Shown here piece after piece: positions 8,241-32,688 of a DNA stretch of 37,741 bases. Source of the DNA: a virus (taxonomy: Duplodnaviria; Heunggongvirae; Uroviricota; Caudoviricetes); IMG/VR virus record IMGVR_UViG_2541047834_000001, one strand, 5' to 3'. Numbering within the stretch: position 1 is the first letter of the stretch; each line of letters starts with the position of its first letter. The notes beneath the pieces were generated by a model that did no database searches, was not told the DNA's origin, and saw nothing but the letters and a program-made list of their open reading frames with translations. A program made the translations under genes and the position numbers.

Positions 8241-8245
8241 TACCA

Positions 8246-12500: not shown

Positions 12501-12831
12501 ATCAGCAGCAGAGCGCAAAGCCGCTCAGAGAGCCAGACAAGCTGCATCTGGTGTGCGTAAGCTGGAAATTGTGCTTGATGCTCAGGAAATTGAAATGCTG
12601 GAGCGTAACTGTGCCACGCGTCGCCCCGGGCGTGCGCCTTACGAATTTGGTGAGTATATAGCGTTACTGATCCGCCAGGATGATGCACGCGTGCGCGGGC
12701 GTATAAAATCGATCAGCAGAAAACGTTGCGGTAAGTGCGGCGAGAGAGTTCCAGTTAATTCATGCCCGTGCAATGGTGACTCGCAATGCTGGGTGACTAA
12801 AGGCTGGCATGAAACGAAATTAATAGTGTGA
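12493..12831 (+). CDS. Zinc-ribbon protein (CxxC...CxC), candidate late-gene regulator
   Basis: Basic N-terminus, C-terminal RKRCGKCGERVPVNSCPCNGDSQC; last early gene before terminator and terminase genes. Confidence 0.5.
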   Translation: MAKSAAERKAAQRARQAASGVRKLEIVLDAQEIEMLERNCATRRPGRAPYEFGEYIALLIRQDDARVRGRIKSISRKRCGKCGERVPVNSCPCNGDSQCWVTKGWHETKLIV

Positions 12832-12839
12832 CATGTCAC
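12828..12839. promoter_or_regulatory. Perfect 12-bp palindrome GTGACATGTCAC (copy 1)
   Basis: Overlaps stop codon of zinc-ribbon gene; terminator 42 nt downstream. Confidence 0.45.
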
Positions 12840-12880
12840 GAGTAGATTATGCATGATGAATTTGATGTGTTTTGAATACT

Positions 12881-12906
12881 GCCGCCAACTATGGCGGCTT
12901 TATTTT
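12881..12906 (+). terminator. Rho-independent terminator upstream of terminase genes (tR'-like)
   Basis: GCCGCCA-ACTA-TGGCGGC hairpin followed by TTTATTTT. Confidence 0.65.
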
Positions 12907-12917
12907 GCATGGTACTA

Positions 12918-12932
12918 TTACCACAACGGTAA
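12918..12932. promoter_or_regulatory. Operator-like palindrome TTACC-ACAAC-GGTAA before terminase genes
   Basis: Immediately 3' of terminator 12881-12906; followed by second TTACC and GGTtA. Confidence 0.45.
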
Positions 12933-12949
12933 CTATTACCACGGTGGTT

Positions 12950-13546
12950 ATGATGCCTGCTGAACCTAAAACCTATAAACGCAAATCAACGCAATTTAAG
13001 CCGCTCACAGCAATGCAGGAGGCTTATTGCCAGTCATACATCAAAACGCCTGAAAACCAGACTCAGGCAGCGATTAATGCAGGATTCTCCCCAAATACAG
13101 CGGCAGTTAAAGCCAGTGTCATGATGCGCGATGAACGCATTCAAAAACGGATTGCCGAGTTGATGGAGGAGCGCAACAAACGAATGCGCGTCAGTGCTGA
13201 TTACGTTCTCATGCGCCTGGTGGAGATCGACCAGATGGACGTGATCGACATCCTCAACGACGATGGGAGCCTTAAGCCAATCCGCGAGTGGCCGAAAATC
13301 TGGCGCACTACGCTTAGCGGCTTTGATCTGTCATCGACCATCATGAACATGAACGAGGATTCGATAGAGACAATCCTCAAAAAAATTAAATGGCCTGACA
13401 AGGTGAAGAACCTCGAACTGATTGGTAAGCACGTCGACGTCAACGCATTCAAAGAACGCCTGGATGTTAATGTGAATGTGACAATTGCTGATCGCATAGC
13501 AGCAGCCAGGAAGCGACTCAAAGAACGTCAGGATGGTAATCAGTGA
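12950..13546 (+). CDS. Terminase small subunit
   Basis: LTAMQEAYCQSYIKTPENQTQAAINAGFSPNTAAVKASVMMRDERIQKRIAELMEE typical of small terminase subunits; coupled (GTGA) to large subunit; in-frame ORF extends to 12872 but that region contains the terminator. Confidence 0.7.
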   Translation: MMPAEPKTYKRKSTQFKPLTAMQEAYCQSYIKTPENQTQAAINAGFSPNTAAVKASVMMRDERIQKRIAELMEERNKRMRVSADYVLMRLVEIDQMDVIDILNDDGSLKPIREWPKIWRTTLSGFDLSSTIMNMNEDSIETILKKIKWPDKVKNLELIGKHVDVNAFKERLDVNVNVTIADRIAAARKRLKERQDGNQ

Positions 13547-15018
13547 CAGATACAGTGTTATCTCCTGAAGAGCAGTTGATCGAGGATATTGCAGGGTTTA
13601 CTCACGATCCGCTTGGTTATGCCCTCTATGCGTTCCCGTGGGGGGAAGAGGGGACTGAACTGGCACATGCCACCGGTCCACGTCAGTGGCAGGCCGATGC
13701 GTTCCGAGAGATACGTGATCACCTGCAGAATCCAGAGACGCGATATCAGCCGCTTATGCTGGCACGCGCTTCTGGTCACGGTATTGGTAAATCCGCATTC
13801 ATCTCAATGCTGATCAACTGGGGCATGTCCACTTGCGAGGATTGTAAGGTCGTGGTGACCGCCAACACCGACAACCAGCTGCGCACCAAGACATGGCCGG
13901 AAATCATCAAATGGTCGAATCTGGCTATCACGAAAGAGTGGTTCACCTGCACCGCCACGGCGATGTACAGCAATGACCCAGGCCACGACAAGCGCTGGCG
14001 AGCTGACGCAATACCGTGGTCTGAGCACAACACAGAGGCGTTCGCCGGGCTGCACAACGAGCGTAAGCGTATCATCGTGGTATTCGATGAAGCATCCAAC
14101 ATTGCCGATCTGGTGTGGGAGGTAGCAGAGGGTGCGCTGACGGACGAAGACACTGAGATTATCTGGGTGGCATTCGGAAACCCTACACGTAACACCGGGC
14201 GTTTCCGCGAATGTTTCCGCAAATATAAACACCGCTGGAAAACTGCGCAGATTGACAGCCGGACGGTGGAAGGCACTAACAAACAGCAGTTGCAGAAATG
14301 GGTTGATGACTACGGGGAAGACAGCGACTTCGTTAAAATCCGTGTGCGCGGCATATTCCCGGATGCATCTGAATTGCAGTTTATCCCTACCGGCCTTACT
14401 GACGAGGCAATGAAACGGGTGGTAACCGCTGCGCAGGTTGCACATGCTCCGGTGATAATCGGCGTTGACCCGGCATACTCCGGCGTTGATGACGCTGTGA
14501 TATACCTGCGGCAGGGGCTGCACAGTAAGGTGCTATGGACTGGTAACAAGACCACCGACGATCTGATTATGGCGAAGCGTATCGCTGACTTTGAAGACCA
14601 GTATCAGGCTGACGCGGTGTTCATCGACTTCGGTTATGGAACCGGTTTGAAGTCAATCGGTGATGGCTGGGGACGTACATGGCAACTTGTTCCGTTCGGC
14701 GGTGCGTCCACTGACCCGCAGATGCTTAACAAGCGTGGGGAGATGTTCAACTCATGTAAGACATGGCTGAGGCTGGGCGGCATGCTGGATGACCAGGAAA
14801 CTGCAGACGACCTGTCGGCGGCAGAGTACAAAGTTCGTGTGGACGGTAAAATCGTTATCGAACCGAAGGAAGATATCAAAGAGCGTCTTGGGCGTTCTCC
14901 TGGTAAAGGCGATGCGCTACTGCTGACGTTTGCTTTCCCGGTCTCGAAACGCATAAATATACCAGGACAGCAAAGCCAGCAGGGAAGGGCCATAACGGAT
15001 TATGACCCTTATGCTTAA
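13543..15018 (+). CDS. Terminase large subunit
   Basis: 491 aa; Walker A-like ARASGHGIGKS, acidic VVFDEASN motif, C-terminal nuclease-like region. Confidence 0.85.
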   Translation: MTDTVLSPEEQLIEDIAGFTHDPLGYALYAFPWGEEGTELAHATGPRQWQADAFREIRDHLQNPETRYQPLMLARASGHGIGKSAFISMLINWGMSTCEDCKVVVTANTDNQLRTKTWPEIIKWSNLAITKEWFTCTATAMYSNDPGHDKRWRADAIPWSEHNTEAFAGLHNERKRIIVVFDEASNIADLVWEVAEGALTDEDTEIIWVAFGNPTRNTGRFRECFRKYKHRWKTAQIDSRTVEGTNKQQLQKWVDDYGEDSDFVKIRVRGIFPDASELQFIPTGLTDEAMKRVVTAAQVAHAPVIIGVDPAYSGVDDAVIYLRQGLHSKVLWTGNKTTDDLIMAKRIADFEDQYQADAVFIDFGYGTGLKSIGDGWGRTWQLVPFGGASTDPQMLNKRGEMFNSCKTWLRLGGMLDDQETADDLSAAEYKVRVDGKIVIEPKEDIKERLGRSPGKGDALLLTFAFPVSKRINIPGQQSQQGRAITDYDPYA

Positions 15019-15069
15019 TCCGCTGGTGGGGATAATGTCGTTGATATCCTCTGGTGAGGATAAAACAAA

Positions 15070-15095
15070 GCCAGCTCATAGGCTGGCTGTTTGTG
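15070..15095. terminator. Bidirectional terminator between convergent terminase and minus-strand gene
   Basis: GCCAGC-TCATAG-GCTGGC hairpin flanked by AAAACAAA and TGTTTGT. Confidence 0.5.
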
Positions 15096-15104
15096 ACATG
15101 CCAC
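15093..15104. promoter_or_regulatory. Near-palindrome GTGACATGCCAC (copy 2)
   Basis: Adjacent to bidirectional terminator 15070-15095, just 3' of minus-strand gene. Confidence 0.4.
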
Positions 15105-15108
15105 GGTG

Positions 15109-15483
15109 TTATTGCTCGCTTAACTTCTGCTTCAGCAAGTAACCTTCGAGCATCCAGATTTTGTTTACAGCATTCTGCCGGGCAATCTTCCGACCAATTT
15201 CTGCATCAAAGTTTTCCGGGCTTGCACAGGCACTCTCTCCGGTGACGGTGAAGCCATTCTTCAGCACCAGTACGCAGAAAGTGAGAAGGTGCAGAGCATC
15301 AGGGGTGGCTTCGACATAAGGCTCCGGATTATAAATAAGGTCATCTTCTTTAGCCTGGTGGTCACCCTGCGCAGCAGTGAAAAAATGCTCACTGCAAATG
15401 AGGCCTTCAATTTTCTCGGGTGTTACACGCGGTGCCGTTTTGCCTTTCTCAACGATTTCTTTTTCGATTTGCTGGTCGTTCAT
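15109..15483 (-). CDS. Hypothetical phage protein (124 aa); possibly N4 gp49 / Sf6 gp66-like
   Basis: Clean minus-strand ORF co-oriented with the tRNA; family assignment tentative. Confidence 0.55.
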   Translation of the reverse strand: MNDQQIEKEIVEKGKTAPRVTPEKIEGLICSEHFFTAAQGDHQAKEDDLIYNPEPYVEATPDALHLLTFCVLVLKNGFTVTGESACASPENFDAEIGRKIARQNAVNKIWMLEGYLLKQKLSEQ

Positions 15484-15681
15484 AATCTCACCTTAAAAAA
15501 ATGCCCGGCGAACCGGGCGAACTGGAAGCAATGAGTTATGCCTTCCGTGGCTGTACGGGTTTACAGCATGAAGTCATCGCAATGGCGTCCTGCTGTAAAA
15601 AGGGCGGTGATAGTCCTTCAAGGGAAACTATCACCGCCAAGCACCTGGAACTTCTGGCATCACGGTCCTTAGGCGTGATTC

Positions 15682-15758
15682 TGGCGTGGCATGCAGGATT
15701 CGAACCTGCGACCAACCGCTTAGAAGGCGGTTGCTCTGTCCAACTGAGCTAATGCCAC
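15682..15758 (-). tRNA. tRNA-Arg (anticodon UCU, reads AGA)
   Basis: 77-nt cloverleaf on minus strand: acceptor GTGGCAT/ATGCCAC, D-stem GCTC/GAGC, anticodon stem ACCGC/GCGGT with loop CTTCTAA, T-arm GCAGG-TTCGAAT-CCTGC, discriminator G, encoded CCA. Confidence 0.9.
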
Positions 15759-15779
15759 AACGCTGAGAGCACTTAGCCT

Positions 15780-16010
15780 GTTAAGGCGCCACACTTTGTC
15801 GCGGCTCCATAAATGCTCTCATCGTTGTACCCTCGTCTCTTCCGAGGCGTCACACCGAATCGCCAGGATGGTGAGTCCTCGGTCCGACGATATGAACGGG
15901 GCTTGCACATTCCGGCTACCTGGTTCGTTTGCCCGAGCAAGGGAGGGTGCCCCTTAAACGTATCCAGACCGCTATCGGCGCATGTGCCATACGCCGTACT
16001 GCTCAAAATA
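15780..16010 (-). other. GC-rich hairpin-dense noncoding region 5' of the tRNA (candidate structured RNA / leader)
   Basis: About 230 nt with several inverted repeats (e.g. CCGAGG...CCTCGG, GAGAGCA...TGCTCTC); overlapping ORFs on both strands look non-protein-like. Confidence 0.3.
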
Positions 16011-16078
16011 AAAGCTCACTCCACCTGTTCAATTTAACGACAAGCCAGTCAGGTTAATAACCGGAATGAACCCTTTGC

Positions 16079-16093
16079 TTACCTGAAAGGTAA
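16079..16093. promoter_or_regulatory. Operator-like palindrome TTACC-TGAAA-GGTAAT between tRNA cassette and portal operon
   Basis: Perfect half-sites in a divergent intergenic region. Confidence 0.5.
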
Positions 16094-16183
16094 TAATTTG
16101 TGCGTTAAATGTCAACTATCTACGATAAATAAATCATATGTGGTTAAATTGGTAATAATTTAATTGCGTACGGAGTCATTGAT

Positions 16184-16390
16184 ATGTGCATGGGGAGCTC
16201 ACCATCAGTGCCTGCAACACCAGAAGTTCAGGTAGCACCACAGGAGCAGGATGCCGCCGTTGTTGATGCCCGCGACGAAGAAACACGTCGCCGTCGCGCT
16301 GCTGCTGGTCGTAGTTCTACGCTGCTTACCGGTTCTCAGGGCGACACATCAACCGCTAATACCAGCGGTAAAACGCTGCTTGGTCAGTAA
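16184..16390 (+). CDS. Hypothetical small protein (68 aa) preceding portal
   Basis: ATG preceded by GGAGTCATTGA, the same RBS context as the portal gene. Confidence 0.45.
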   Translation: MCMGSSPSVPATPEVQVAPQEQDAAVVDARDEETRRRRAAAGRSSTLLTGSQGDTSTANTSGKTLLGQ

Positions 16391-16404
16391 CCGGAGTCAT
16401 TGAA

Positions 16405-18084
16405 ATGGCGGAAACAACTAAAGAGCGATTGAACAAACAGTTCGCACAACTTGAAAGCGAGCGTCAGTCGTTCGAGCCGCACTGGCGCGAGTTGAGTGAT
16501 TACATCAACCCGCGTGGTTCCCGCTTTCTGACTTCTGAGGTCAACCGTAACGATCGACGGAATACACGCATTATTGATTCGACCGGGACTATGGCGGCGC
16601 GCACTCTCGCCAGCGGCATGATGTCAGGCATCACAAGCCCCGCGCGTCCGTGGTTTCGCCTGGCTACGCCAGATCCTGAAATGATGGATTATGGCCCTGT
16701 TAAGTTGTGGCTTGAGGCGGTGCAGAACCGCATGAACGATATGTTCAATAAGTCGAATCTCTATCAGTCGCTGCCGCAGTTATACGGAAGCCTCGGCACA
16801 TACAGCACTGGTGCAATGGCGGTGCTGGAGGATGACGAGGACATCATTCGCACAATGCCATTCCCTATAGGCAGTTACTACCTGGCTAACTCACCTCGTG
16901 GCAGTGTGGACACCTGTTTTCGCAAGTTCTCTATGACTGTTCGTCAGCTTGTTCAGGAGTTCGGGCTAAATAACGTCAGCGAATCCGTAAAAAGCATGTG
17001 GGAAAGCGGCACCTACGAGAAGTGGATTGAAGTGATGCATTCGGTTTACCCGAACATTGACCGCGATACATCGAAGCTGGATAGCAAGAACAAGCCATTC
17101 AAATCGGTTTATTACGAGGTTGGTGGCGATAACGACAAGTTGTTGCGTGAGTCCGGATTCGATGAGTTTCCAATTATGGCTCCGCGCTGGGAAGTTAACG
17201 GCGAAGATGTTTATGGATCATCATGCCCTGGTATGCTGGCGCTTGGACCTGTTAAGGCATTGCAGCTTCTCCAGAAGCGCAAGTCGCAGTTGATTGATAA
17301 AGCCACCAATCCGCCGATGGTTGCTCCGACTTCCCTCAAGAATCAGCGCGCCTCCCTTCTTCCTGGCGACATCACGTATATCGATCAGATTACTGGTCAG
17401 GATGGTTTCAGGCCTGCTTATCTGGTTAACCCCAGTACAGCAGATCTGGTAGCAGACATTCAGGACACCCGCCAAATCATTAACAGCGCCTACTTTGTCG
17501 ATCTGTTCATGATGTTGCAGAACATCAATACCCGCTCGATGCCTGTTGAAGCAGTGATCGAAATGAAAGAAGAAAAGCTTCTGATGTTGGGGCCAGTTCT
17601 GGAGCGTCTGAACGACGAATGTCTTAATCCTCTCATTGACCGCACTTTCTCGATGATGGTGCGTAAAAACATGTTGCCGCCACCGCCTGACGCGATGGAA
17701 GGCATGCCCCTGAAGGTCGAATACATTTCCGTCATGGCTCAGGCGCAGAAGTCTATCGGCCTGTCCAGTCTGGCGTCCACGGTTAACTTCATTGGTCAAC
17801 TTGCGCAAGCGAAACCAGAAGCTCTCGACAAACTCAACGTTGATCAGGCGATCGATGCATTCGCTGATATGTCCGGAGTGTCTCCAACCGTCATTGTTCC
17901 GCAGGAACAGGTTGAGCAGGCTCGCCAGCAACGGGCACAGCAACAACAGCAGCAACAAATGATGGCGATGGGGATGGCGGCGGCACAGGGTGCCAAGACG
18001 CTAAGCGAAGCTAAAACTTCGGAGCCGAGTGTTTTGTCAGCTATGGCGAATGCAGTTAGTGGTCAGGGTGGGCAATCACAATGA
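16405..18084 (+). CDS. Portal (head-tail connector) protein, T7 gp8-like
   Basis: 559 aa; Gln/Ala/Met-rich C-terminus (RQQRAQQQQQQQMMAMGMAAAQGA) like T7-type portals; downstream of terminase. Confidence 0.8.
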   Translation: MAETTKERLNKQFAQLESERQSFEPHWRELSDYINPRGSRFLTSEVNRNDRRNTRIIDSTGTMAARTLASGMMSGITSPARPWFRLATPDPEMMDYGPVKLWLEAVQNRMNDMFNKSNLYQSLPQLYGSLGTYSTGAMAVLEDDEDIIRTMPFPIGSYYLANSPRGSVDTCFRKFSMTVRQLVQEFGLNNVSESVKSMWESGTYEKWIEVMHSVYPNIDRDTSKLDSKNKPFKSVYYEVGGDNDKLLRESGFDEFPIMAPRWEVNGEDVYGSSCPGMLALGPVKALQLLQKRKSQLIDKATNPPMVAPTSLKNQRASLLPGDITYIDQITGQDGFRPAYLVNPSTADLVADIQDTRQIINSAYFVDLFMMLQNINTRSMPVEAVIEMKEEKLLMLGPVLERLNDECLNPLIDRTFSMMVRKNMLPPPPDAMEGMPLKVEYISVMAQAQKSIGLSSLASTVNFIGQLAQAKPEALDKLNVDQAIDAFADMSGVSPTVIVPQEQVEQARQQRAQQQQQQQMMAMGMAAAQGAKTLSEAKTSEPSVLSAMANAVSGQGGQSQ

Positions 18085-18377
18085 CAGATTACGAAGATGA
18101 TCAACTGAAAGAAGAAAACGCCCGTAAGCAATGTGACATGGCACAGCGTGAAATTGATGACATTCGCTTTGTCATGAGCAGTGAACAGGGGCGTCGCGTT
18201 GTCTGGTCGGTGCTGGAGAAAGGCCGTGTGTTTTCCGCTATCTCACCGATGGACGCTATGGCAATGGCATTTAATGAGGGGCAACGCAATCTGGCGCTGG
18301 AACTGTTTCAGCGCGTTATGGCGCATTGCCCTGAACAGTATTTGAAGATGGCCAAAGAGGCCAGTGAACAGGAGTGA
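18081..18377 (+). CDS. Hypothetical protein (98 aa)
   Basis: ATGA-coupled to portal stop. Confidence 0.5.
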   Translation: MTDYEDDQLKEENARKQCDMAQREIDDIRFVMSSEQGRRVVWSVLEKGRVFSAISPMDAMAMAFNEGQRNLALELFQRVMAHCPEQYLKMAKEASEQE

Positions 18378-18379
18378 TC

Positions 18380-19075
18380 ATGAATTTATTTGAGCGTTTG
18401 CTGTATCGCCGTCTTTGCAATGAGCAACCAGTCGATGGTGGAGCAGCTCCGGCTGCGTCAGAACCGTCAGCGCCTGCAGGTGATAACCCTGCTCCAGTTG
18501 GTGATCCATCACAACCGGAAGGTGATAAGCCACAACCTGTTGCTGATGGCGATAAACCTGCTGATGACAAAAAGCCTGAAAACGATAAGCAGGATGAAAA
18601 AAAGGGCGGCGATAAACCAGAGGGTGCGCCTGAGAAGTACGAGTTTCAGGCTGCCGAAGGCGTAGAGCTGGATACAGAAGCGTTGAAGGAATTCGAGCCG
18701 GTGGCGCGAGAACTAAACCTGACCAACGAGCAAGCGCAAAAGCTGGTTGATGCTTATCCGAAGATTCTGGCAGGTGTTCAGCAGCGCCAGGCAGAAGCCT
18801 GGCAGAAAACAACCGAGCAGTGGGCTGCGGATGTAAAAGCTGACAAAGAAATCGGTGGCGACAAGTTGATTTCTAACCTTAGCGCCGCACAGCGTGCGCT
18901 TGACCAGTTCGGGACACCTGAACTCAAAGAATATCTGAACACCACCGGACTGGGTAATCACCCTGATCTGGTCAAAACGTTCGTGAAAATCGGAAAGGCG
19001 ATGTCTGAAGATGGCATGGTCACCGGTGGTAATGAAGGCCAGCGTAGTGCGGCCGAAGTGCTCTATGGCAAATAA
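18380..19075 (+). CDS. Scaffolding protein (acidic, low-complexity)
   Basis: Pro/Asp/Lys/Glu-rich N-terminal half, helical C-terminal half; located between portal and capsid genes; ATG at 18380 with AGGAG RBS. Confidence 0.6.
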   Translation: MNLFERLLYRRLCNEQPVDGGAAPAASEPSAPAGDNPAPVGDPSQPEGDKPQPVADGDKPADDKKPENDKQDEKKGGDKPEGAPEKYEFQAAEGVELDTEALKEFEPVARELNLTNEQAQKLVDAYPKILAGVQQRQAEAWQKTTEQWAADVKADKEIGGDKLISNLSAAQRALDQFGTPELKEYLNTTGLGNHPDLVKTFVKIGKAMSEDGMVTGGNEGQRSAAEVLYGK

Positions 19076-19083
19076 GAGAGGAA

Positions 19084-20076: not shown

Positions 20077-20127
20077 CGCCTGTTATTAACCTGTGGGTCG
20101 TAACAGACCCACTAATGGAGAAAGAAG

Positions 20128-20565: not shown

Positions 20566-20566
20566 G

Positions 20567-20911: not shown

Positions 20912-20928
20912 GCCTCGCGAATCAGACA

Positions 20929-20949
20929 AGGGGCTTCGGCCCCTTTATT
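20929..20949 (+). terminator. Rho-independent terminator (AGGGGC-TTCG-GCCCCT + TTTATT)
   Basis: GC-rich stem with stable TTCG tetraloop followed by a T-rich tract. Confidence 0.7.
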
Positions 20950-25370: not shown

Positions 25371-27883
25371 TGCCAGTCGTACCAACAGTATCCGGACGCC
25401 AGGTTGAGAGCCGTGGAGTTCAGTCAGCAGGCTTGCAGACGTTTTCTCAGCCAGGTATTGGTGATGCTTTTGTTCGGGCAGGGACAGAGGCAATTGATGT
25501 TTTGGGGCAGGCAAAACAGCGTGCCAATATCGCTCTGGCTCAGGAGGCATCTCTTAACCTCAGTCAGATAAGCAGTGATCTGCTGAATAACCCTGAAACA
25601 GGTTTGCTTAACCTGAAAGGGAAAAATGCTATTGGAAAAGGCCATGAGTATACGCAGCAGTTTGATGCTCAGGTCGAACAACTGGCTATGTCGCTGCCGG
25701 ATGAACAGGCTCGTAATGCTTTCATGCAGCAGGCGCAGCAGCAGCGCATTCAGTTCACTACGCAGGCCGGGCGGCACGAGATAGGGCAAATTAATGCCTA
25801 CGAAGAAGGTCAGTTTCAGGCGACGCTGCTGAACAATGGTAAAAATGCCGCAGCATTGTATGGCGACAATGCCGCATACGTATTGGCTAATAAGCAAACT
25901 TTCCAGCAAATTGAGGAGTACGGTGCTGCACATGGCTGGAGCGACGAGCAAATACAGGCCAAGAAAATCGAGTTTAAAGAGAAGGTTGCTGATGCAGCAT
26001 TGTCCCAGTGGTCGGCAAACAATGCGACCGCATTCATCCAAAGTAATGGCGAGTTAAGTGATACTGCTGCTGGAGCTCGCCGTGCTGTAACAGATAGTGG
26101 CTCTTCCGAGCGTGTCCGTGGCATACGCAACAATAACCCCGGAAATCTCGAATACAGCAAAACTAATCCGTGGGTAGGCCAGACCGGTGATGATGGTAGA
26201 TTTGCTAAATTCGAAACACCTGAACACGGGATTCGTGCATTAGGGCGGAACCTGATGTCGTATCAGCGGCAGGGTATTGATACCGTCAGCGAGATAATTA
26301 ATCGCTGGGCACCGCCTACTGATAAAAATGACACTATGTCGTATATCAAAGCAGTGTGCGAACAACTTGGCGTTTCTGCTGATGAGCCTCTCGATGCATC
26401 AAATCCTGATACCCTGAAGGCGCTTTGTGCAGCCATTATCCATCATGAGAACGGTAGCCAGCCATACAGTGATCAGAAGTTAACTGCTGGTGTCAGTGCA
26501 GCACTTGGTTTATCAACAATTCCAACCAACACCAAACGCTATACCGGTAATGCAGCATTCGATGCGGCATCTCCTGAGGCTCAGGCAAGTTTTATGCGGC
26601 AGGCGGATCAACTGCGTCGGCAGCAGCAGGCTGAATATAAAACGATGATTGACAGCCAGGTTCGCGATGCGACGGCTGCGTATATGCGTGGCGTTGAATT
26701 TCCTAACCCACCTGGTGAGGCTGATTTTATTGCAGCTTATGGAGTCAGAGAAGGAAACCTGCGATATACCGAGTTTAAGAATACGCAGATCGCCGGACAG
26801 TATATAGGCTCTTTCCGCAACATGCCGACAAGCAGCATTACAGCATATGTTGAGCAATTACGCCCGGATACTGGTGAGACAGGGGAGGGTTATGCGGCTC
26901 GCGCAGCTCTTTATGACAACGTTGTTTCGGCTGCAAATCAGGTGATAAAGCAGCGGCAGTCTGATCCTGTGCAGTTCTCTCTTGCCTCTGGACAGGCAAA
27001 GCCTATCGACATGAGCAATAAGGATAACTTTGGACAGAGCGTTGCCTTGCGTGCCGCTCAGGTCAGTGACCTTGCTAAGTCATATGGCACTCCACTGACG
27101 TTCTTTTCCAAAGACGAGGCCAATCAGATCGGTGTTTTTTTTCGTGATGCTCCAGTTTCCCAACAGGCAGCATATCTCGATACCATCAGGCAGAGCACTG
27201 GTGGTGGGCAGGTGTATATGTCAGCACTACAGCAGATCAGTGCCAACGCTCCATCTGCTGCCGTTGCCGGGATACTGATGGATAAGCCTGGTGGTATTTT
27301 GGCAGAAAAAAACTGGTTTAATCCGGATGTTTCCGTGTCTCCTGAAACCGCTGCGCAGACAATTCTTGCTGGCGCGGCGGCTCGTAAAGGTACTGATGAT
27401 GCGAAAGGTATTCCGATGCCTAAAGATGCTGATCTTCGCCTTGAGTTTTCTGACATGGTGAAGGATGCATTTGCTGGTGATGCTCAGGGGGCATCAATGG
27501 CATACGAGATCGCAAAGGACTATTACGCTGGTGTGATGGCGAAAAAAGGCGTGATATCAGGCGAAATTGACACTGATATCTGGAAACAGGCTGTTAACGT
27601 AGCTACAGGTGGCGTGCATGACTATAACGGAATGGGGAATGTCCTTTTGCCGTGGGGAATGTCTGCAGAGCAATTCGATAAGCAGGTTAATCAGGCTTGG
27701 AATGAACAAGTTGTCGGCTCCGGGATAAAAACACCGCCTGGTCAGTATGGTTTGCAAAGTTACGGCGATAGTCAGTACCTGGTGAAACTTGGTACTGGTT
27801 ATCTGCTGAAAGATGATGGTTCTCCCGTTGTTCTTAATCTGACACAGAAGCGTCAGAGATTCTCCGGAGATATTCCGCAATGA
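25370..27883 (+). CDS. Internal virion / ejection protein (gp15 position) with a conserved domain (GIRNNNPGNLEY...)
   Basis: About 837 aa from ATG at 25370 (TAATG overlap); ORF track extends to 25295. Confidence 0.65.
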   Translation: MPVVPTVSGRQVESRGVQSAGLQTFSQPGIGDAFVRAGTEAIDVLGQAKQRANIALAQEASLNLSQISSDLLNNPETGLLNLKGKNAIGKGHEYTQQFDAQVEQLAMSLPDEQARNAFMQQAQQQRIQFTTQAGRHEIGQINAYEEGQFQATLLNNGKNAAALYGDNAAYVLANKQTFQQIEEYGAAHGWSDEQIQAKKIEFKEKVADAALSQWSANNATAFIQSNGELSDTAAGARRAVTDSGSSERVRGIRNNNPGNLEYSKTNPWVGQTGDDGRFAKFETPEHGIRALGRNLMSYQRQGIDTVSEIINRWAPPTDKNDTMSYIKAVCEQLGVSADEPLDASNPDTLKALCAAIIHHENGSQPYSDQKLTAGVSAALGLSTIPTNTKRYTGNAAFDAASPEAQASFMRQADQLRRQQQAEYKTMIDSQVRDATAAYMRGVEFPNPPGEADFIAAYGVREGNLRYTEFKNTQIAGQYIGSFRNMPTSSITAYVEQLRPDTGETGEGYAARAALYDNVVSAANQVIKQRQSDPVQFSLASGQAKPIDMSNKDNFGQSVALRAAQVSDLAKSYGTPLTFFSKDEANQIGVFFRDAPVSQQAAYLDTIRQSTGGGQVYMSALQQISANAPSAAVAGILMDKPGGILAEKNWFNPDVSVSPETAAQTILAGAAARKGTDDAKGIPMPKDADLRLEFSDMVKDAFAGDAQGASMAYEIAKDYYAGVMAKKGVISGEIDTDIWKQAVNVATGGVHDYNGMGNVLLPWGMSAEQFDKQVNQAWNEQVVGSGIKTPPGQYGLQSYGDSQYLVKLGTGYLLKDDGSPVVLNLTQKRQRFSGDIPQ

Positions 27884-29682
27884 GTTACTTTGGCCTTAAT
27901 CCAGTAAACCAGAATCAGCAGCTTGACGAAGCAGCATCAAATCCAGCTGGCTTTAACAGCGATGTTGGTTTTTTCGACAATGCTGTAGGAGCGGCATTGT
28001 CTGGTTTGTACTCCGGGCTGGTGGCAAAGCCAGATCAGTTGCTATGGGCAGGGATGGATAAAATCGTATCCCCGATTGCTCAGTTTGTTAACGAAAACAC
28101 CTCGATCAATGACACTTCAGTTTCATACATTGCTGAGCAGAGAAAACTAGCAGAGCAGCAGGTTAAGCGGCTGACGCCTGATGCCGCGACAACCGGAACC
28201 GCCGGGCAGGTCCTTTATGGGTTGTTCGATATGGGCGGGCAGGCTGTTGTCGGTACAACGCTCGGTGGTCCGGTCGGAGGTGCTGCGGCGGTAACTTCTC
28301 TACAGGGTTTTTCTGAGTTTGAACGGCTGACAGCACAGGGTGTTGATTTCAGGACGGCGCAGGAAGCGGGATTAGTGCAGGGTATTACTGCTGGTGCCGG
28401 AACACTGATCCCTATGAGCCTCGGGTTACGTGCTGGTGGTGCACTGGCGGAAGGTGTGGCGGCTCAGCTTGCGCGGACGGGTGAAAGTTCAGTGCGACGC
28501 GCCGCAGCAACAGCAGTACGTGCAACGCCAGATATTGCCTATGCCGCAGGTACAAATATTGCGTTCGGTATGGCACAGCGTGGGCTTACTGCAAAAACGC
28601 TTCGTGATGGTGGCTATAGCGAAATGGCTAACCAGTATGATGTGTTGGATCGACAGGCAATTGCTATTGATGCTGTTCTTGGGGTGGCGTTTGGTGGTGT
28701 CGGCAGATTTATTAACTCTCGCGGCGAGTCTACAAGCGCACCAAATTTTTCACCAGTTGATGTTGATGCTGCACTGGCGGCGAATGCCGCTCATCATGCT
28801 GAAATTGATATTGCGCCCGGCGTGCCGATCAACGTGCTTTCGCGCAATTCTCACATTCAGGCTCTGCGAAAAGCTATGTCTGATGTTAGCCAGGGGAGAC
28901 CTGTAGACGTTGCCAGCATTGTTGAGTCTGCATCTTTCAGTGAAATTCCTGGGCGCAAGAGTCTGCTGTCTCAGGCAGTTAATGAGGCTCTGTCATCTGT
29001 AGATGATGGAGTAACGGCGCGCGCTATAGAAAATCGGTTGCTTGAAGAACAGGCCGCGCAGCTTTTGCCGCGTGGCGATAGACAGGTTTACCAGTCTGAA
29101 ATAGCTAATAGCCAACGAATTATTGAAAATCTCACTGAACAGCGCGCACAAATTCTTGCAGAAGAGCCAACCGGTAGCGGTAAATCTTTGTCTCGTGCTC
29201 GATCAGATAAACAGGTCAGACTTCGCGATATTGACCAACGAATCCGGCAGGCACAAGAACGCCTGGAATTTTCCCGTAACGCGTTGGCACCGCATGAGCC
29301 TGGCGGTCAGTTTTTTGAAGCTCGAGCAGAACTGGCACGGAGACAGCAGGCTGAAAGTGAACTTAATGCTCAGGCTGTTTCATTCTATAAAACAGCAGAG
29401 GTCAGGACGCCAGGCGAAGTAGCTCCTTTTGAGCCTGATAAAATATTGCAACAGGCAGAACAAAAAATGATGGCGGATCAGGCAGGAGATATTGATCTGC
29501 GCATAGCTGAAGACTCGCTGCTTGAATCACCTGACATGATAATCACCGTGCTGGATGATGATGGTAATCCACAATCGCGCAGCGCGCGTGAAGTACTGGA
29601 TGAAGCGAACAGGGAAAGTGAGCAGGCAATACAGGATTCCAGCCTGTTTGATGTCGCTGTGGCGTGTTTCTTGAGAGGTTAA
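27880..29682 (+). CDS. Internal virion / ejection protein (N-terminal part of gp16-like function)
   Basis: 600 aa; ATGA-coupled; Ala/Gly-rich N-terminus and coiled-coil C-terminus. Confidence 0.65.
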   Translation: MSYFGLNPVNQNQQLDEAASNPAGFNSDVGFFDNAVGAALSGLYSGLVAKPDQLLWAGMDKIVSPIAQFVNENTSINDTSVSYIAEQRKLAEQQVKRLTPDAATTGTAGQVLYGLFDMGGQAVVGTTLGGPVGGAAAVTSLQGFSEFERLTAQGVDFRTAQEAGLVQGITAGAGTLIPMSLGLRAGGALAEGVAAQLARTGESSVRRAAATAVRATPDIAYAAGTNIAFGMAQRGLTAKTLRDGGYSEMANQYDVLDRQAIAIDAVLGVAFGGVGRFINSRGESTSAPNFSPVDVDAALAANAAHHAEIDIAPGVPINVLSRNSHIQALRKAMSDVSQGRPVDVASIVESASFSEIPGRKSLLSQAVNEALSSVDDGVTARAIENRLLEEQAAQLLPRGDRQVYQSEIANSQRIIENLTEQRAQILAEEPTGSGKSLSRARSDKQVRLRDIDQRIRQAQERLEFSRNALAPHEPGGQFFEARAELARRQQAESELNAQAVSFYKTAEVRTPGEVAPFEPDKILQQAEQKMMADQAGDIDLRIAEDSLLESPDMIITVLDDDGNPQSRSAREVLDEANRESEQAIQDSSLFDVAVACFLRG

Positions 29683-29687
29683 ATTAA

Positions 29688-32162
29688 ATGAGACAGGAAT
29701 GTATACAAGCGGTCCAGCAGGCGGCGCAGCGCACGTTAACGGCGCGAGAAATACAGAACATTGAAGACCGCATTTATCGAAATATGCGCTCCATTGCTCG
29801 TGATGACCCGATGTCGTGGAGACAACTTTCCGAATCAGAGCGGCTATATCGTGCAGCACAATTGGCATCTGAAGAATTACAGCGAGAAGCGGCATTAAAG
29901 AAACGTCGTGTGGCCCTCACTATAGCCGCACGTCAGAGATTGGATAAATTTATCAATAGCTATCAAGGGGCTGATGGGAAACTTGGCGCTCTTAACCGTA
30001 CTATTGCTTTTAATGCAGACGGTAAATCGAATTTCCTCTCTGTTGAATCCAGAACAAAAGCCACTCGTGATTATGCATTGAGTCAATTGCAGGAGGCATT
30101 CGAAGCAGTTGATCCTCGCTTTTTTGGTCTGTTTGAAGATGAAGCGGGCGTACGTGACCTGGTATATGAAATGCGAGGGCAAAATACTGGCAATGCTAAA
30201 GCAAGAAAAGGTGCTAAGGCGTGGAGAGAAGTGACAGAGCTACTGCGCCGCCGGTTTAATGATGCTGGTGGGGACATTGGCTATCTCGAAAACTGGGGGC
30301 TCCCTCAACATCATTCTATGGAAAAGGTTGGGGCGGTATCAAAGGATAAGTGGGTTAGCGATGTTATAGGTAAGCTGGATCGCAAATATTATACCCGAGC
30401 CGATGGACAACTGATGAACGATGCCGAGTTGTCTGCATTTCTTGGAGAGGCTTATAACACGATCGCTACTGGTGGGCTGAATAAGCTTACTGATACCGGA
30501 ATGCGAATTTCCGGCGCACGTGCTAACCGGGGTAATGCATCACGACAGATACATTTCAAAGATGCAGATTCCTATCTGCAATATCAGCAACTTTATGGCG
30601 ATCGCTCTCTATGGGAAATCATGGTCGGTCACCTGGAAGGTATCAGTAAAGATATTGCACTGGTGGAAACATATGGCCCAAACCCCGATCATGTTTTCCG
30701 CTCTCTTCTTGATCAGGTGAAGGCAGAAACGGCAACAGCTAACCCGAGTAAAACCGGTAAAGTCGAGCGGCTGGCGAACAACACAGAGAATCTGTACAAC
30801 TTTATTTCCGGAAAGACACAGCCTGTAGCGAATCCGCACATCGCGCGATGGTCTGACAATATTCGCAACTGGCTGGTTGCCAGCAGACTCGGATCCGCGT
30901 TGCTGTCATCGTTCTCTGATCTTGGAACCATGTATCTGTCTGCGAAGGTTACCAACCTTCCAATGAACCAGTTATTCCGCAACCAGCTTGAAGCTATGGA
31001 CCCAACGAACCGTACAGAACTTGCGCGGGCGCGCCGCGCTGGTCTGGCGATGGAATCTCTACTTGGCAGCGTTAACCGCTGGGCGATGGATAATATGGGG
31101 CCGTCAGTGTCTCGTTGGGCGGCAACGGCGGTAATGCGTGCCAGTGGGCTTACAGCATGGTCAGATGCGCACAAGCGCGCCTATGGCGTAACCATGATGG
31201 GAAGCCTGGGAGAAGTAGTGTCACGAACACCAGACCTTCGTAGCCTCGATGACTCTGATTTTCGTATCCTGAAAAGCAAAGGGATTACTGACACAGACTG
31301 GAGCGTATGGAAGCTGGCGCAACAGGAGGACTGGGGGAACGGTAATAATACGATGCTGACACCGGAAAGCATTATGCGTATCCCTGATTCAGCAGTTAAA
31401 CATCTTGGTGAGCCTGAACGCGTGAAATTTGAGGCAATGCGTAAACTGCTCGGTGCCGTAACTGAAGAAGTTGATATGGCTGTTATTACACCGGGAGCAC
31501 GTGAGCAACTGATAACCGGTTCTGGTATTCAGCGTGGAACATGGAAAGGTGAATTAACGAGAAGTGTTTTCCTGTTTAAATCGTTCCCTATCTCGGTTGT
31601 TATGCGTCACTGGTCACGCGCTATGGGTATGCCGTCTGCTGGTGGGCGTGCGGCATATATTGCGACGTTTATTGCCAGTACGACCATTCTTGGCGCTTTG
31701 TCGCAACAACTTAACGACCTTGCGTCTGGTCGTAATCCTCGAGAGATGACAGGAGAAGATGCCGCAAAATTCTGGCTTGGTGCTCTACTGAAAGGTGGTG
31801 GTCTTGGCCTTTATGGTGACTTTTTATTGTCAGATCACACTAGGTACGGAAGCGGCGCGCTGGCGTCGATGCTTGGCCCGGTAGCTGGTCTGGTTGATGA
31901 CGTAGTGAAGATTGCTCAGGGCATACCGTTAAATGCTGTGGAAGGGAAGAGTGAGCAGACTGGTGGTGATCTGGTGAAGCTGGGGAAAGGTTTGATGCCA
32001 GGTGCGAATCTCTGGTACTTGAAGGCGGCTCTCGATCACATGATCTTTAATCAGATGCAGGAGTATTTTTCACCAGGCTATTTGCGTAAAATGGAGCAAC
32101 GTTCGAAGAAAGAGTTTAACCAGACATACTGGTGGCGACCTCAGGATGTCACTCCGCAATAA
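29688..32162 (+). CDS. Internal virion / ejection protein (gp16-like, large)
   Basis: 824 aa; synteny. Confidence 0.65.
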   Translation: MRQECIQAVQQAAQRTLTAREIQNIEDRIYRNMRSIARDDPMSWRQLSESERLYRAAQLASEELQREAALKKRRVALTIAARQRLDKFINSYQGADGKLGALNRTIAFNADGKSNFLSVESRTKATRDYALSQLQEAFEAVDPRFFGLFEDEAGVRDLVYEMRGQNTGNAKARKGAKAWREVTELLRRRFNDAGGDIGYLENWGLPQHHSMEKVGAVSKDKWVSDVIGKLDRKYYTRADGQLMNDAELSAFLGEAYNTIATGGLNKLTDTGMRISGARANRGNASRQIHFKDADSYLQYQQLYGDRSLWEIMVGHLEGISKDIALVETYGPNPDHVFRSLLDQVKAETATANPSKTGKVERLANNTENLYNFISGKTQPVANPHIARWSDNIRNWLVASRLGSALLSSFSDLGTMYLSAKVTNLPMNQLFRNQLEAMDPTNRTELARARRAGLAMESLLGSVNRWAMDNMGPSVSRWAATAVMRASGLTAWSDAHKRAYGVTMMGSLGEVVSRTPDLRSLDDSDFRILKSKGITDTDWSVWKLAQQEDWGNGNNTMLTPESIMRIPDSAVKHLGEPERVKFEAMRKLLGAVTEEVDMAVITPGAREQLITGSGIQRGTWKGELTRSVFLFKSFPISVVMRHWSRAMGMPSAGGRAAYIATFIASTTILGALSQQLNDLASGRNPREMTGEDAAKFWLGALLKGGGLGLYGDFLLSDHTRYGSGALASMLGPVAGLVDDVVKIAQGIPLNAVEGKSEQTGGDLVKLGKGLMPGANLWYLKAALDHMIFNQMQEYFSPGYLRKMEQRSKKEFNQTYWWRPQDVTPQ

Positions 32163-32171
32163 GGAAGTGTT

Positions 32172-32345
32172 GTGTTTTTAATTATTTTGAGTGTGATAAT
32201 TTCTGGTGGATTGTTATTTATTGACCGCTACAAATATTTTCTTAACCCTCAGACTCAAGCTATTTGCTGGTTCATCTTTGTTGTGCAGGGAGTAGTTCTT
32301 GTTGCAAGCCTTATTGAGGGGAGGCCTCTTATTTTTACTGGGTAA
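32172..32345 (+). CDS. Small hydrophobic membrane protein (57 aa), AT-rich moron
   Basis: GTG start 4 nt after AAGGAAG; VFLIILSVIISGGLLFIDRYKYFLNPQTQAICWFIFVVQGVVLVASLIEGRPLIFTG; about 30% GC; not in ORF track (size cutoff). Confidence 0.4.
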   Translation: MFLIILSVIISGGLLFIDRYKYFLNPQTQAICWFIFVVQGVVLVASLIEGRPLIFTG

Positions 32346-32357
32346 ATAGGTGACTAC

Positions 32358-32654
32358 ATGCAAGCTATAGGATTCATTGTTTATATCGTCGTTGGTCTTT
32401 TTCAGTTGGCAGCAATTATGGCTGGGCTTGAATCATGGTGGGGATTGCACTGGATAATTGCAGCCCCCATTGCTTTCATCGTGAGCTATATTCCATTTGT
32501 TGGAGCGATTGTTGGTATGGTTGGCGCTGTGGATGTATGGCGGTGGGAGTGGTGGCAGGCTGGCCTTCTCTTCTTTGGTGGGATCATCTTTGCTATTGTC
32601 TGCGGTGGAATGTCATCATTTTTCGAATGGCTATCATTCAGAAAAGGGACGTGA
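32358..32654 (+). CDS. Trp-rich integral membrane protein (98 aa, about 3 TM)
   Basis: Hydrophobic segments; stop embedded in GTGACATGTCAC palindrome; followed by terminator. Confidence 0.55.
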   Translation: MQAIGFIVYIVVGLFQLAAIMAGLESWWGLHWIIAAPIAFIVSYIPFVGAIVGMVGAVDVWRWEWWQAGLLFFGGIIFAIVCGGMSSFFEWLSFRKGT

Positions 32655-32662
32655 CATGTCAC
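32651..32662. promoter_or_regulatory. Perfect 12-bp palindrome GTGACATGTCAC (copy 3)
   Basis: Overlaps stop codon of membrane-protein gene; terminator hairpin starts 2 nt downstream. Confidence 0.45.
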
Positions 32663-32663
32663 A

Positions 32664-32688
32664 GGCCGCTTTCGCGGCCTTTAAATTT
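32664..32688 (+). terminator. Terminator hairpin GGCCGC-TTTC-GCGGCC + TTTAAATTT
   Basis: Perfect 6-bp GC stem with T-rich tail; between convergent genes. Confidence 0.55.

Follow-up and report, generated by a model that had tools for sequence, protein, structure and literature searches.

A conserved palindrome of epsilon15-like prophages and its apparent co-inheritance with the gene of a predicted ribbon-helix-helix protein

Palindromes, terminators and repressor operators in the window

The window, a stretch of 37,741 nucleotides (IMG/VR record IMGVR_UViG_2541047834_000001), is an epsilon15/phiV10-like prophage. It contains three matches to GTGACATG(T/C)CAC, at 12828, 15093 and 32651, where dinucleotide shuffles give an expectation of 0.00; for GTGAC-NN-GTCAC the expectation in the window under a first-order Markov model is 0.029. 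Copy 1 (12828-12839, GTGACATGTCAC) is a perfect palindrome with the TGA stop codon (12829-12831) of the plus-strand ORF 12490-12831 inside it. Copy 2 (15093-15104, GTGACATGCCAC) has one mismatch; the stop codon of the minus-strand ORF 15109-15483 precedes it by 5 nt, and a hairpin at 15069-15088 is 4 nt away. Copy 3 (32651-32662, GTGACATGTCAC) is again perfect; the TGA stop (32652-32654) that closes ORF 32358-32654 lies inside it, and a hairpin at 32663-32680 directly adjoins it. The coordinates and sequences of these copies agree with those given in a first-pass annotation of the window, and its count of three is to be extended by a one-mismatch copy (GTGACATGGCAC, 18133-18144) inside ORF 18081-18377, 0.11 one-mismatch matches being expected in the window. 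The fourth copy is present in 97%-identical E. coli phages and absent from epsilon15 and SPN1S, and it is probably non-functional.

All three copies lie 1-42 nt from a strong terminator hairpin. The first hairpin (12881-12898, plus strand) is an intrinsic terminator with a T-run and separates the early-right operon from the terminase genes. The second (15069-15088) is found at the convergent junction of terL (plus strand) and ORF 15109-15483 (minus strand); the minus strand has a good T-run there and the plus strand reads GTTTGTG. A hairpin had been placed here at 15070-15095, and its presence is upheld with the extent corrected. The third (32663-32680, plus strand) is an intrinsic terminator at the end of the virion operon, convergent with the minus-strand ORF 32687-32962, and its stem is kept in epsilon15, SPN1S and Tyrion. 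The stems of the three hairpins are unlike one another in sequence, in keeping with the earlier view of the palindrome as a separate conserved element and not a duplicated terminator. The palindrome is not itself an intrinsic terminator: it lies outside the terminator stems and its own fold reaches only -2.7 kcal/mol. Only 2.4% of window positions are equally near one of the eight strongest terminator-like hairpins, which gives p ∼1.5e-5 for three of three copies. The proximity to terminators and module boundaries reported at first is real and non-random in epsilon15-like phages, but it is not general, the sites of other lineages being away from terminators.

The unit ends marked by the copies are those of the early-right operon, of the terminase unit with its convergent moron, and of the virion operon with its convergent moron. 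The minus-strand ORF 15109-15483, with copy 2 at its 3' end, encodes a 124-aa protein of the Pfam family Phage_gp49_66 (N4 gp49/Sf6 gp66 family), and in Tyrion copy 2 comes after the homologue of this gene, not after terL. What had been described as a tRNA cassette next to the terminase genes consists of the only tRNA in the window (Arg-TCT, minus strand, 15682-15758). Operator-like sites of the prophage repressor (TTACC-N5-GGTAA) are located between terminator 1 and terS (two sites, 12918-12950), at the start of the next plus-strand late segment (16079-16093), and ahead of the tailspike gene, where the segment after copy 3 begins (33021-33035). The late segments are thus arranged with a palindrome and a terminator at the end of each and a repressor operator at the start of the next. 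The same OL/OR-type motif is found at 5173, 5235 and 5947 and at other window positions, and in the epsilon15 record the corresponding ATTACC-N5-GGTAAT sites are labelled as repressor binding. This motif has no relation to the palindrome, and we rejected the palindrome as a prophage repressor operator or stoperator because the two motifs differ.

No conserved promoter was detected around the sites: -35-like GTGACA and -10-like hexamers are inconsistent from site to site. In the Aeromonas phage, N15 and window copy 3 the -10-like hexamers precede the site by 13-16 nt, and a promoter-like match at 12828 (GTGACA-18-CATGAT) is weak (9/12) and not kept in epsilon15. The phiV10 record starts inside the palindrome; a genome end (cos/pac) was considered for this start and rejected, as the start simply comes after the stop codon of the last gene.

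The first-pass annotation had raised the case of the motif being missing at equivalent positions in related phages. At ∼78-82% nucleotide identity, all three positions are kept in epsilon15 and SPN1S, and so are those positions that the linear records of Tyrion and phiV10 leave intact. The copy 2 equivalent is a perfect palindrome in phiV10, epsilon15, SPN1S and Tyrion. Among 34 IMG/VR relatives with the same flanks it is perfect in 29, reads GTGATATGTCAC in four and has the version of the window in one; the mismatch in the window is a rare variant. Copy 3 is kept at the virion operon end in phiV10, TL-2011b, Tyrion, SPN1S and epsilon15 despite differing upstream genes. Annotators can rely on the motif to locate operon ends in prophages of the epsilon15 type, among them those of E. 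coli O157 and Salmonella.

Co-occurrence of the motif with the 112-aa protein gene

The ORF overlapped by copy 1 (12490-12831, plus strand; start codon probably the ATG at 12493) encodes a 112-aa protein with a four-Cys knuckle, belongs to the family of epsilon15 gp49 and N15 gp46 (phrog_536), and sits at the end of the early-right operon. An AF2 model based on a 72-sequence alignment of 50%-identity representatives predicts a strand-helix-helix fold of the kind by which ribbon-helix-helix proteins of the Arc/MetJ/CopG type pair into dimers (an earlier alignment of 25 sequences, 32-98% identity, gave pLDDT 63); the protein has no four-helix bundle and no coiled coil. Its N-terminus (AERKAAQRARQ) is arginine-rich, with a basic helix before the ribbon. 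Sequence and profile searches of Pfam, NCBIfam and PDB gave no match, and a domain search detected no Q-family domain. The family comprises ∼200 clusters at 50% identity, which are named in databases only as "hypothetical protein" or "transcriptional regulator". Family and site occur in podo-, myo- and siphoviruses, in linear plasmid-prophages (N15, phiKO2) and in P2-like phages.

The generalised motif is YGTGAC-NN-GTCACR (consensus YGTGAC-AT-GTCACR, 12-14 bp), and its centre is strictly 2 bp: 208 sites with N2 were counted in 2.5 Mb of gene-bearing loci, and no other spacing had more than two. Eleven of 12 complete gene-bearing genomes have one to three perfect sites each (0.01-0.05 expected); in the twelfth, that of an Aeromonas phage, the one-mismatch variant GTGACCGGACAC is present three times. 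The 80 gene-bearing loci from IMG/VR contain 132 sites against 1.3 expected, and 34 prophage loci from a one-genome-per-species collection contain 49 against 0.6. Six phage lineages that have the motif and otherwise show no relationship, those of the window, ZF40, N15, Vibrio K233, YenM_42.18 and the Aeromonas phage, share no window ORF but the 112-aa gene. In ∼70 of the 80 IMG/VR loci the site keeps its place with respect to the stop codon of the gene, and it overlaps or closely trails this stop in at least eight unrelated downstream contexts. The motif tracks the 112-aa gene rather than terminators. The palindromes are conserved copies of a 12-14 bp DNA site that accompanies this gene in many unrelated phages. 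The first-pass annotation had overlooked both the link to the gene overlapped by copy 1 and the resemblance to matS described below. Of the three roles that it had offered (protein binding site, RNA processing signal, recombination site), the first is by far the best reading of a perfect DNA palindrome with invariant arms, co-inherited with a predicted ribbon-helix-helix gene. The 112-aa protein probably binds the palindrome; the family is best read as a new phage ribbon-helix-helix protein family with the palindrome as its putative cognate operator.

A 14-mer scan of IMG/VR returned partial contig pieces and chance matches and is not a clean test from motif to gene. Sodalis phiSG1, meant as a relative without the gene, proved to be a degraded mosaic and was uninformative. 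An N15-like locus in an alphaproteobacterial assembly is presumably a contaminant or a stray plasmid-prophage contig. Literature searches with the motif sequences gave no phage-related mention.

The similarity between lineages stops right after copy 1, where at least eight unrelated sequences follow, and all three copies border hypervariable moron regions. These junctions would also be seen if the palindrome were a recombination or insertion hotspot that makes mosaic junctions and moron insertions, the protein assisting in the way that Xis or TraY do; among ribbon-helix-helix proteins, TraY, TraM and PcfF are DNA-processing accessory factors. However, no dedicated recombinase or nuclease co-occurs (the 112-aa gene alone is common), the sites are intact in every genome, and some of them lie inside conserved cII-like and repA coding sequences, which are not mosaic junctions. 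A conserved module boundary is equally expected if the site belongs to the function of the gene. We consider this role very unlikely, although the end of similarity after copy 1, on the side of the earlier suggestion, is as described.

Outside the epsilon15 lineage, the sites in ZF40, N15/phiKO2, Vibrio K233, the Aeromonas phage, and Proteus, Providencia and Xenorhabdus prophages are not beside terminators; they overlap the stop codon of their own gene, abut Shine-Dalgarno sequences, or sit in-frame in a cII-like gene. Where the site falls in a cII-like gene (ZF40; Proteus, Providencia, Morganella and Xenorhabdus prophages), neither the 12-mer nor its frame varies, whereas the neighbouring codons and residues do, which argues for selection on DNA. 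At one locus (L114) the site comes after the T-run, not before the hairpin, so there is no fixed geometry of site and terminator. The Shine-Dalgarno sequence of the next gene is abutted by the site in N15 and phiKO2 (GTGACTGGTCAC-GGAGG), in the Aeromonas phage (3/3, in one orientation), and in loci L123 and L149 type. Two of the Aeromonas sites are at ∼+8 to +20 of promoter-like sequences. These placements, together with the arginine-rich N-terminus of the protein, would suit an element that acts in RNA, as a small hairpin or linear motif bound by this N-terminus and affecting translation of the next gene or the stability or processing of mRNA 3' ends. Against it, the weak hairpin of the palindrome has a z-score near -1.3, the arms are invariant in hosts from Vibrio to Escherichia with no covariation or compensatory change, the symmetry continues into the flanks (Y...R), which suits a dimer on duplex DNA, pairing is disrupted in the Aeromonas variant, and the predicted fold is that of a DNA-binding ribbon-helix-helix protein. 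An Rfam scan of the whole window matched the tRNA only, with no match at the palindrome. The RNA processing signal proposed at first fares poorly on these data, and we regard any action in RNA as highly improbable.

Resemblance to matS and other known sites

The MatP site matS is GTGACRNYGTCAC, 13 bp with a 3-bp centre (PMC6907758), and the DNA-contact residues of MatP are K71, Q72, R75, and R77 (PMC8523169). The contact residues form KxxxRAR, a pattern that K9, R13 and R15 of the 112-aa protein match. The phage site has the same 5-bp arms (GTGAC/GTCAC) and is likewise dispersed as single palindromes kilobases apart, and the phage protein is predicted to share the ribbon-helix-helix core with a basic helix ahead of the ribbon. 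In contrast, the phage centre is 2 bp rather than 3 bp (208 N2 vs. two N3 sites in the 2.5 Mb of gene-bearing loci), and the 112-aa protein has a four-Cys knuckle and is without the four-helix bundle and coiled coil of MatP. The sites are also phage-borne, at one to four per 40 kb, at gene or operon ends, with one site always tied to the gene of the protein. No sequence homology of the 112-aa protein to MatP was detectable, and hhalign against MatP was not significant. Membership of the palindrome and protein in MatP/matS was rejected on the 2-bp centre and on the lack of MatP-family homology or architecture; by sequence comparison, the phage system appears to be a distinct, phage-borne variant resembling the MatP/matS system of the host.

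The hosts of this phage family match the clade having MatP, and the near-identity to matS raises the questions whether phages imitate or interact with host chromosome organisation and where the DNA-recognition module of MatP originated. The sites might mimic matS, being bound by host MatP or contested by the phage protein, with a role in DNA organisation (positioning, cohesion, exclusion of the MukBEF condensin) and not in transcription. We find this quite unlikely: the strict 2-bp centre shifts the arms by one base pair, ∼34 degrees, relative to a 3-bp centre; the sites are co-inherited with a phage gene, which would be needless if host MatP were the binder; and the phage protein is without the MatP bundle, coiled coil and detectable homology. 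It is similarly improbable, and somewhat more so, that a miniature orthogonal MatP/matS-like system (the protein plus one to four GTGAC-N2-GTCAC sites) is present in temperate phages of Enterobacterales, Vibrio and Aeromonas and serves DNA organisation, not promoters. Such a system could unload or block MukBEF or SMC-type defence complexes on phage DNA, or position or cohere replicating genomes, and it may be related by evolution to the host Ter-organising system, with descent in either direction. Literature searches found nothing on matS-like sites in phages.

Ribbon-helix-helix repressors (Arc, Mnt, CopG, AmrZ, antitoxins) resemble the predicted phage fold and bind short palindromic DNA as dimers. 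Unlike their operators, the phage sites are mostly at stop codons, inside genes and beside terminators rather than at promoters, and each is a single 12-bp site, not a tandem operator; the phage protein also has an extra zinc knuckle. The stoperators of cluster A mycobacteriophages (L5 gp71) are short sites, intergenic or overlapping stop codons in transcribed regions, for which a block of elongation has been proposed; they are asymmetric and orientation-dependent, a genome has 20-30 of them, and their binder is the immunity repressor. The phage sites are likewise short and scattered, some over stop codons in transcribed regions, but they are palindromic and number about three per genome, and the immunity repressor here has the motif TTACC-N5-GGTAA. 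The SopB centromere sites of N15 and phiKO2 are also few single palindromes scattered in or near regulatory regions. Their motif (GTGCGACCACGGTCGCAC in phiKO2) is different and its binder is of the ParB type, and N15 and phiKO2 have both sets independently; identity with SopB sites was rejected on the motif. A CRP-type site was rejected as well: the CRP consensus is TGTGA-N6-TCACA, whereas the spacing here is TGTGA-N4-TCACA and the outer T/A is only Y/R.

Candidate action at unit boundaries

As the best explanation overall, we propose that the palindromes are double-stranded DNA sites for a dimer of the 12490-12831 protein, placed at unit boundaries, and we put its probability at roughly 55%. 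Gene and site would form a portable module, of which one copy of the site is kept at or near the 3' end of the gene and others spread through the same phage. A dimer of the ribbon-helix-helix/zinc-knuckle protein would sit on YGTGAC-AT-GTCACR with its strict 2-bp centre and, being symmetric, act as a boundary on the DNA in both directions. Whichever way RNA polymerase came, it would stall at the hairpin or next to it, which could tighten or gate termination and insulate convergent units. The possible effects at unit ends may thus include a roadblock, insulation, control of read-through, or a MatP-like organisation of DNA. That binding acts on transcription at unit boundaries is a tentative and rather doubtful extension, drawn from the epsilon15-like lineage only.

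The position of the 112-aa gene at the end of the early-right operon suggests that the protein is presumably made only in lytic growth. Stronger termination before the late genes at that time seems counter-intuitive, and read-through control or antitermination fits the timing better. The palindromes might load an antitermination factor as do the lambda Q and N systems, the protein engaging polymerase at them so as to read through the terminators at 12881, 15069 and 32663 in the plus-strand late array. As in lambda Q/qut/tR', a regulator gene at the early operon end is followed by a putative DNA site, a terminator and the late genes; the palindromes are at exactly the three terminators that a single late transcript must cross; the phiV10 and epsilon15 records annotate no Q or N homologue; and ZF40-like and N15-like phages have sites in both early operons, reminiscent of nutL and nutR. 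However, N15, phiKO2 and ZF40 have Q-like proteins of their own besides the 112-aa family gene. Between copy 1 and the terminator lie 22 nt in epsilon15 and 42 nt in the window, of unrelated sequence, which leaves no conserved promoter or pause element there, and the extra copies are far from promoters. Copy 2 lies after its hairpin for plus-strand transcription, and most sites outside the epsilon15-like lineage are without a downstream terminator. Ribbon-helix-helix proteins, moreover, are mostly repressors or architectural factors. We rejected a lambda Q-type module, as the Q domain is lacking and the region from site to terminator is kept in neither sequence nor length, and antitermination in the wider sense is unlikely.

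The proposed binding of the 112-aa dimer to the palindromes pairs a probable DNA site with an uncharacterised protein family purely by comparative genomics. The module recurs across phage types, and therefore its action could be a common and overlooked layer of temperate-phage control. In the window, copy 1, just past the gene of the protein, would make read-through into the following module depend on the protein level. The Aeromonas phage has one site immediately 5' of the gene for the protein, an arrangement that resembles autoregulation.

Palindromes in the window and in its relatives

The pattern GTGACATGYCAC was matched in the window at 12828, 15093 and 32651 only, and dinucleotide-preserving shuffles of the window gave 0.00 matches; a one-mismatch search added a single match at 18133 (GTGACATGGCAC), within an ORF. 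The TGA stops of ORFs 12490-12831 and 32358-32654 are inside copies 1 (12828-12839) and 3 (32651-32662), respectively, and copy 2 (15093-15104) is located 5 nt past the stop of the minus-strand ORF 15109-15483. The terminator-like hairpins near copies 1, 2 and 3 (12881-12898, 15069-15088 and 32663-32680, respectively) are all within the eight strongest such structures of the window (p about 1.5e-5 for three of three copies; only 2.4% of window positions are equally close). Since the coordinates, the shuffles and the hairpin-proximity statistics agree, the first-pass annotation was correct in describing a palindrome that occurs three times at gene 3' ends beside terminators, and the stems of the three neighboring hairpins are indeed unlike each other.

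The palindrome is also present at the equivalent positions in related phages. Perfect copies occupy all three positions in epsilon15 (39612, 2142 and 19517) and SPN1S (38653, 2174 and 19662). Tyrion and phiV10 have them at both positions that the ends of their records leave uncut, and TL-2011b has them at two. This set shows only 77-82% identity to the window in the palindrome region. The gene upstream of copy 3 varies among the epsilon15-like genomes compared. A degenerate fourth palindrome (GTGACATGGCAT/GTGACATGTCAT) overlaps the 3' end of Rz in the lysis cassette of epsilon15 (26618) and SPN1S (26722); it was not found in the window, where the Rz C-terminus differs.

In the terminase-portal region, the window shares about 97% identity with phiV10, PAS61 and TL-2011b, and it represents a complete prophage of the epsilon15/phiV10 type (Uetakevirus). 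It is bounded by an identical 17-bp direct repeat, ATTGAGTGGGAATGATT (1-17 and 37725-37741), next to the integrase gene (208-1458). The repeat is most likely the att core, and the window would thus be the complete excised or integrated prophage. The ORF ending in copy 1, a homologue of epsilon15 gp49 and phiV10 p55, is the final gene of the early-right operon, and the terminase genes follow directly.

A second motif, TTACC-N5-GGTAA, occurs in about 11 copies (5173, 5235, 5947, 5995, 6332, 8278, 8340, 12918, 12936, 16079 and 33021; also 151) around the repressor/cro region and ahead of each late-gene segment. The late plus-strand segments start with it at 12918/12936 (terS), 16079 (portal segment) and 33021 (tailspike), and the segment preceding each of these terminates in the palindrome plus a terminator. 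In epsilon15 this second motif is annotated as repressor binding (ATTACC-N5-GGTAAT); it is unlike the palindrome. The stoperator-like layout of its copies in the window may directly silence the late genes in lysogens. Elsewhere in the window, the replication-initiator ORF 6643-7458 contains iteron-like tandem repeats (6897-7049, and 6940-6995 and 7051-7079), one array with a 24-nt period (CCCAAAAACGGGATGTTGAATGAT, 100% matches) and others with 18-nt and 12-nt periods, which are probably the replication origin; two of them were wrongly called as hairpins in the terminator scan. Between terL and the portal gene, the moron region carries a single minus-strand tRNA-Arg(TCT) (15682-15758), followed on that strand by two strong terminator-like hairpins (15638-15603, 14 pairs, and 15518-15503).

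Association with one gene in unrelated phages

The motif was also found in phages with virion modules unrelated to those of the window. Pectobacterium myovirus ZF40 carries three perfect copies, one of them 3 nt past the stop of gp22 (67% identical to the product of ORF 12490-12831, the window protein). In N15 and phiKO2, GTGAC(TG/CA)GTCAC is present in three copies whose positions are equivalent, and one copy overlaps the stop of gene 46 (35% identical to the window protein); these palindromes were rejected as SopB centromere sites, the two site sets being distinct. Three copies (GTGACRCGTCAC) are present in Vibrio phage K233, one in the Yersinia P2-like phage YenM_42.18, and three of the one-mismatch variant GTGACCGGACAC (19904, 44302 and 46954) in the most distant case, Aeromonas phage 85AhydR10PP, compared with a chance expectation of 0.01-0.05 copies per genome. 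In an all-against-all ORF comparison, no window ORF other than 12487-12831 had homologues in each of the five other lineages (ZF40, N15, Vibrio K233, YenM_42.18 and the Aeromonas phage); the integrase came next, shared with two of the five.

Among 80 gene-bearing loci from IMG/VR, 132 sites were detected vs 1.3 expected, with two recurrent positions, one at the stop codon of the gene and the other a few kb further downstream, close to where the terminase genes end. Thirty-four prophage loci from a one-genome-per-species collection gave 49 sites vs 0.6 expected. The centre spacing was 2 bp in 208 sites and every other spacing accounted for two sites at most. Flanking conservation in the gene-selected loci is limited to Y at -1 and R at +12. 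Judged by these sequence comparisons, we concluded that the palindrome goes with gene 12490-12831, not with terminators.

In gene-bearing loci the palindrome lies on the gene's stop codon or 7-25 nt past it in otherwise unrelated contexts: it is followed by a terminator, repressor operators and then terS, by a LexA-box promoter and a umuD-like gene, by an ORF whose Shine-Dalgarno sequence touches the site, or by small hairpins without T-runs. The palindrome thus belongs to the cassette of the gene. In eight loci (L092, L110, L121, L065, L202, L208, L213 and L220), the LexA-box promoter (TACTGT-N8-ACAGTA) follows the palindrome within 7-25 nt and drives a gene that is umuD-like or otherwise under SOS control; the palindrome falls at about -50 of this promoter. 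One contig in an alphaproteobacterial assembly, assigned to Limoniibacter endophyticus, carries the gene and its GTGACTGGTCAC site in an N15-like locus; it probably represents contamination or a stray contig of a plasmid-prophage.

A candidate binding protein and its likeness to MatP

The symmetry of the palindrome extends into its flanks, and a dimeric protein on duplex DNA is the simplest reading. An RNA or translational role is kept as a minor rival because a Shine-Dalgarno sequence directly adjoins many sites and the three Aeromonas GTGACCGGACAC sites share the sense orientation, each 1-3 nt upstream of such a sequence. It is unlikely: the RNA fold of the palindrome reaches only -2.7 kcal/mol, the Rfam search gave no match, the arms show no covariation, and the Aeromonas variant would disrupt arm pairing. 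In two of the Aeromonas sites, a good -10 hexamer (TATAGT or TATGAT) precedes the palindrome by 14-16 nt; one site immediately precedes the family gene itself, which suggests autoregulation in this phage. Of the functions proposed in the first-pass annotation, a protein-binding site is therefore favored over an RNA signal, and a recombination site is improbable.

Pfam, NCBIfam and PDB sequence searches with the window protein gave no match; the sole hit was PHROG 536, 'transcriptional regulator'. The family comprises about 208 clusters at 50% identity. An AlphaFold2 model built on a 72-sequence alignment (pLDDT 93.6) predicts a basic helix spanning residues 5-19, an extended stretch (24-28) in which hydrophobic residues alternate, two further helices (30-42 and 52-74), a four-Cys knuckle (conserved positions 79, 82, 91 and 99) and a last helix. 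R8 and R13 are kept in 71 of 72 members, and K/Q9 and R/K15 are also conserved. In YenM_42.18 the annotated gene (8073-8318) seems too short; the open frame from 7971 (7971-8318) recovers the conserved N-terminal basic helix. The palindrome is a good candidate for the cognate operator of this protein, at a probability of roughly 70%.

MatP binds matS, GTGACRNYGTCAC (PMC6907758), whose arms are identical to those of the phage site; the phage centre is one base pair shorter. The MatP residues reported to contact matS are K71, Q72, R75 and R77 (PMC8523169, citing Dupaigne 2012), which sit in a basic helix, KQTIRARRKRH, just N-terminal of the ribbon-helix-helix. A KxxxRAR pattern is common to MatP and the window protein (K9-AAQ-R13-A-R15), in both just before the ribbon-helix-helix. 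Homology is unproven, because the profile comparison was not significant, although the two ribbon-helix-helix helices were aligned. The phage protein lacks the four-helix bundle and coiled coil of MatP, and membership in the MatP family was rejected on sequence, site length and architecture. At the least, it may work like a small relative. The family is found in Escherichia, Salmonella, Klebsiella, Citrobacter, Pantoea, Pectobacterium, Yersinia, Proteus, Xenorhabdus, Vibrio and Aeromonas, hosts that fall in the clade with MatP and MukBEF. An orthogonal mini MatP/matS system that would act on how phage DNA is organised, or on SMC complexes, is improbable.

The arms, core fold and dispersed sites of MatP/matS are all matched by the phage pair, the L5 stoperators follow the same placement logic, and the lambda Q module has the gene-site-terminator order seen at copy 1. 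The pair was assigned to none of these three systems; by its predicted fold the protein falls in the ribbon-helix-helix superfamily, as do the repressors of that fold. Neither the motif nor phage sites resembling matS gave any relevant match in full-text literature searches, and what is new here is a putative phage-borne, matS-like protein-site pair.

Site placement and possible roles

Copies 2 and 3 are at convergent junctions with minus-strand morons. Read along the direction of the terminator's T-run, the palindrome is 0-42 nt upstream of the hairpin; read in the opposite direction, the hairpin comes first and the palindrome stands where the U-run would be. Because palindrome and terminator close segments, and given the convergent junctions and hairpin geometry, a bound dimer could set up a symmetric boundary where units end and help to halt or gate polymerase there. 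We regard such a boundary or roadblock as tentative and rather doubtful. A role in antitermination or read-through fits at least as well on the timing of expression of gene 12490-12831, and other lineages have sites within both early operons, within genes and by ribosome-binding sites.

The more divergent prophages of Proteus, Providencia, Morganella and Xenorhabdus, together with ZF40, carry an in-frame site (xGT GAC ATG TCA Cxx) within a cII-like gene, 56-65 nt ahead of its stop (ZF40, 7622; L224, 3965; L228, 4584; L234-L237; L241, 6412; L242, 7427). The 12-mer is invariant, yet the codons on either side vary, as do even the encoded amino acids (R..H, C..Q, R..R), which shows selection on the nucleotide sequence itself. 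These genomes have a second copy in the leftward early operon, so both early operons carry the palindrome, a layout reminiscent of nutL/nutR. What the sites have in common across lineages is a position at gene boundaries within transcribed regions and not proximity to terminators; the termination-specific role first proposed is supported for the epsilon15-like lineage only. In two Pectobacterium/Symbiopectobacterium prophages (L230 and L231, 10336-10375), the gene 3' end carries a tandem pair of palindromes 27-28 bp apart start to start, e.g., GTGACGTGTCAC...GTGACATGTCAC.
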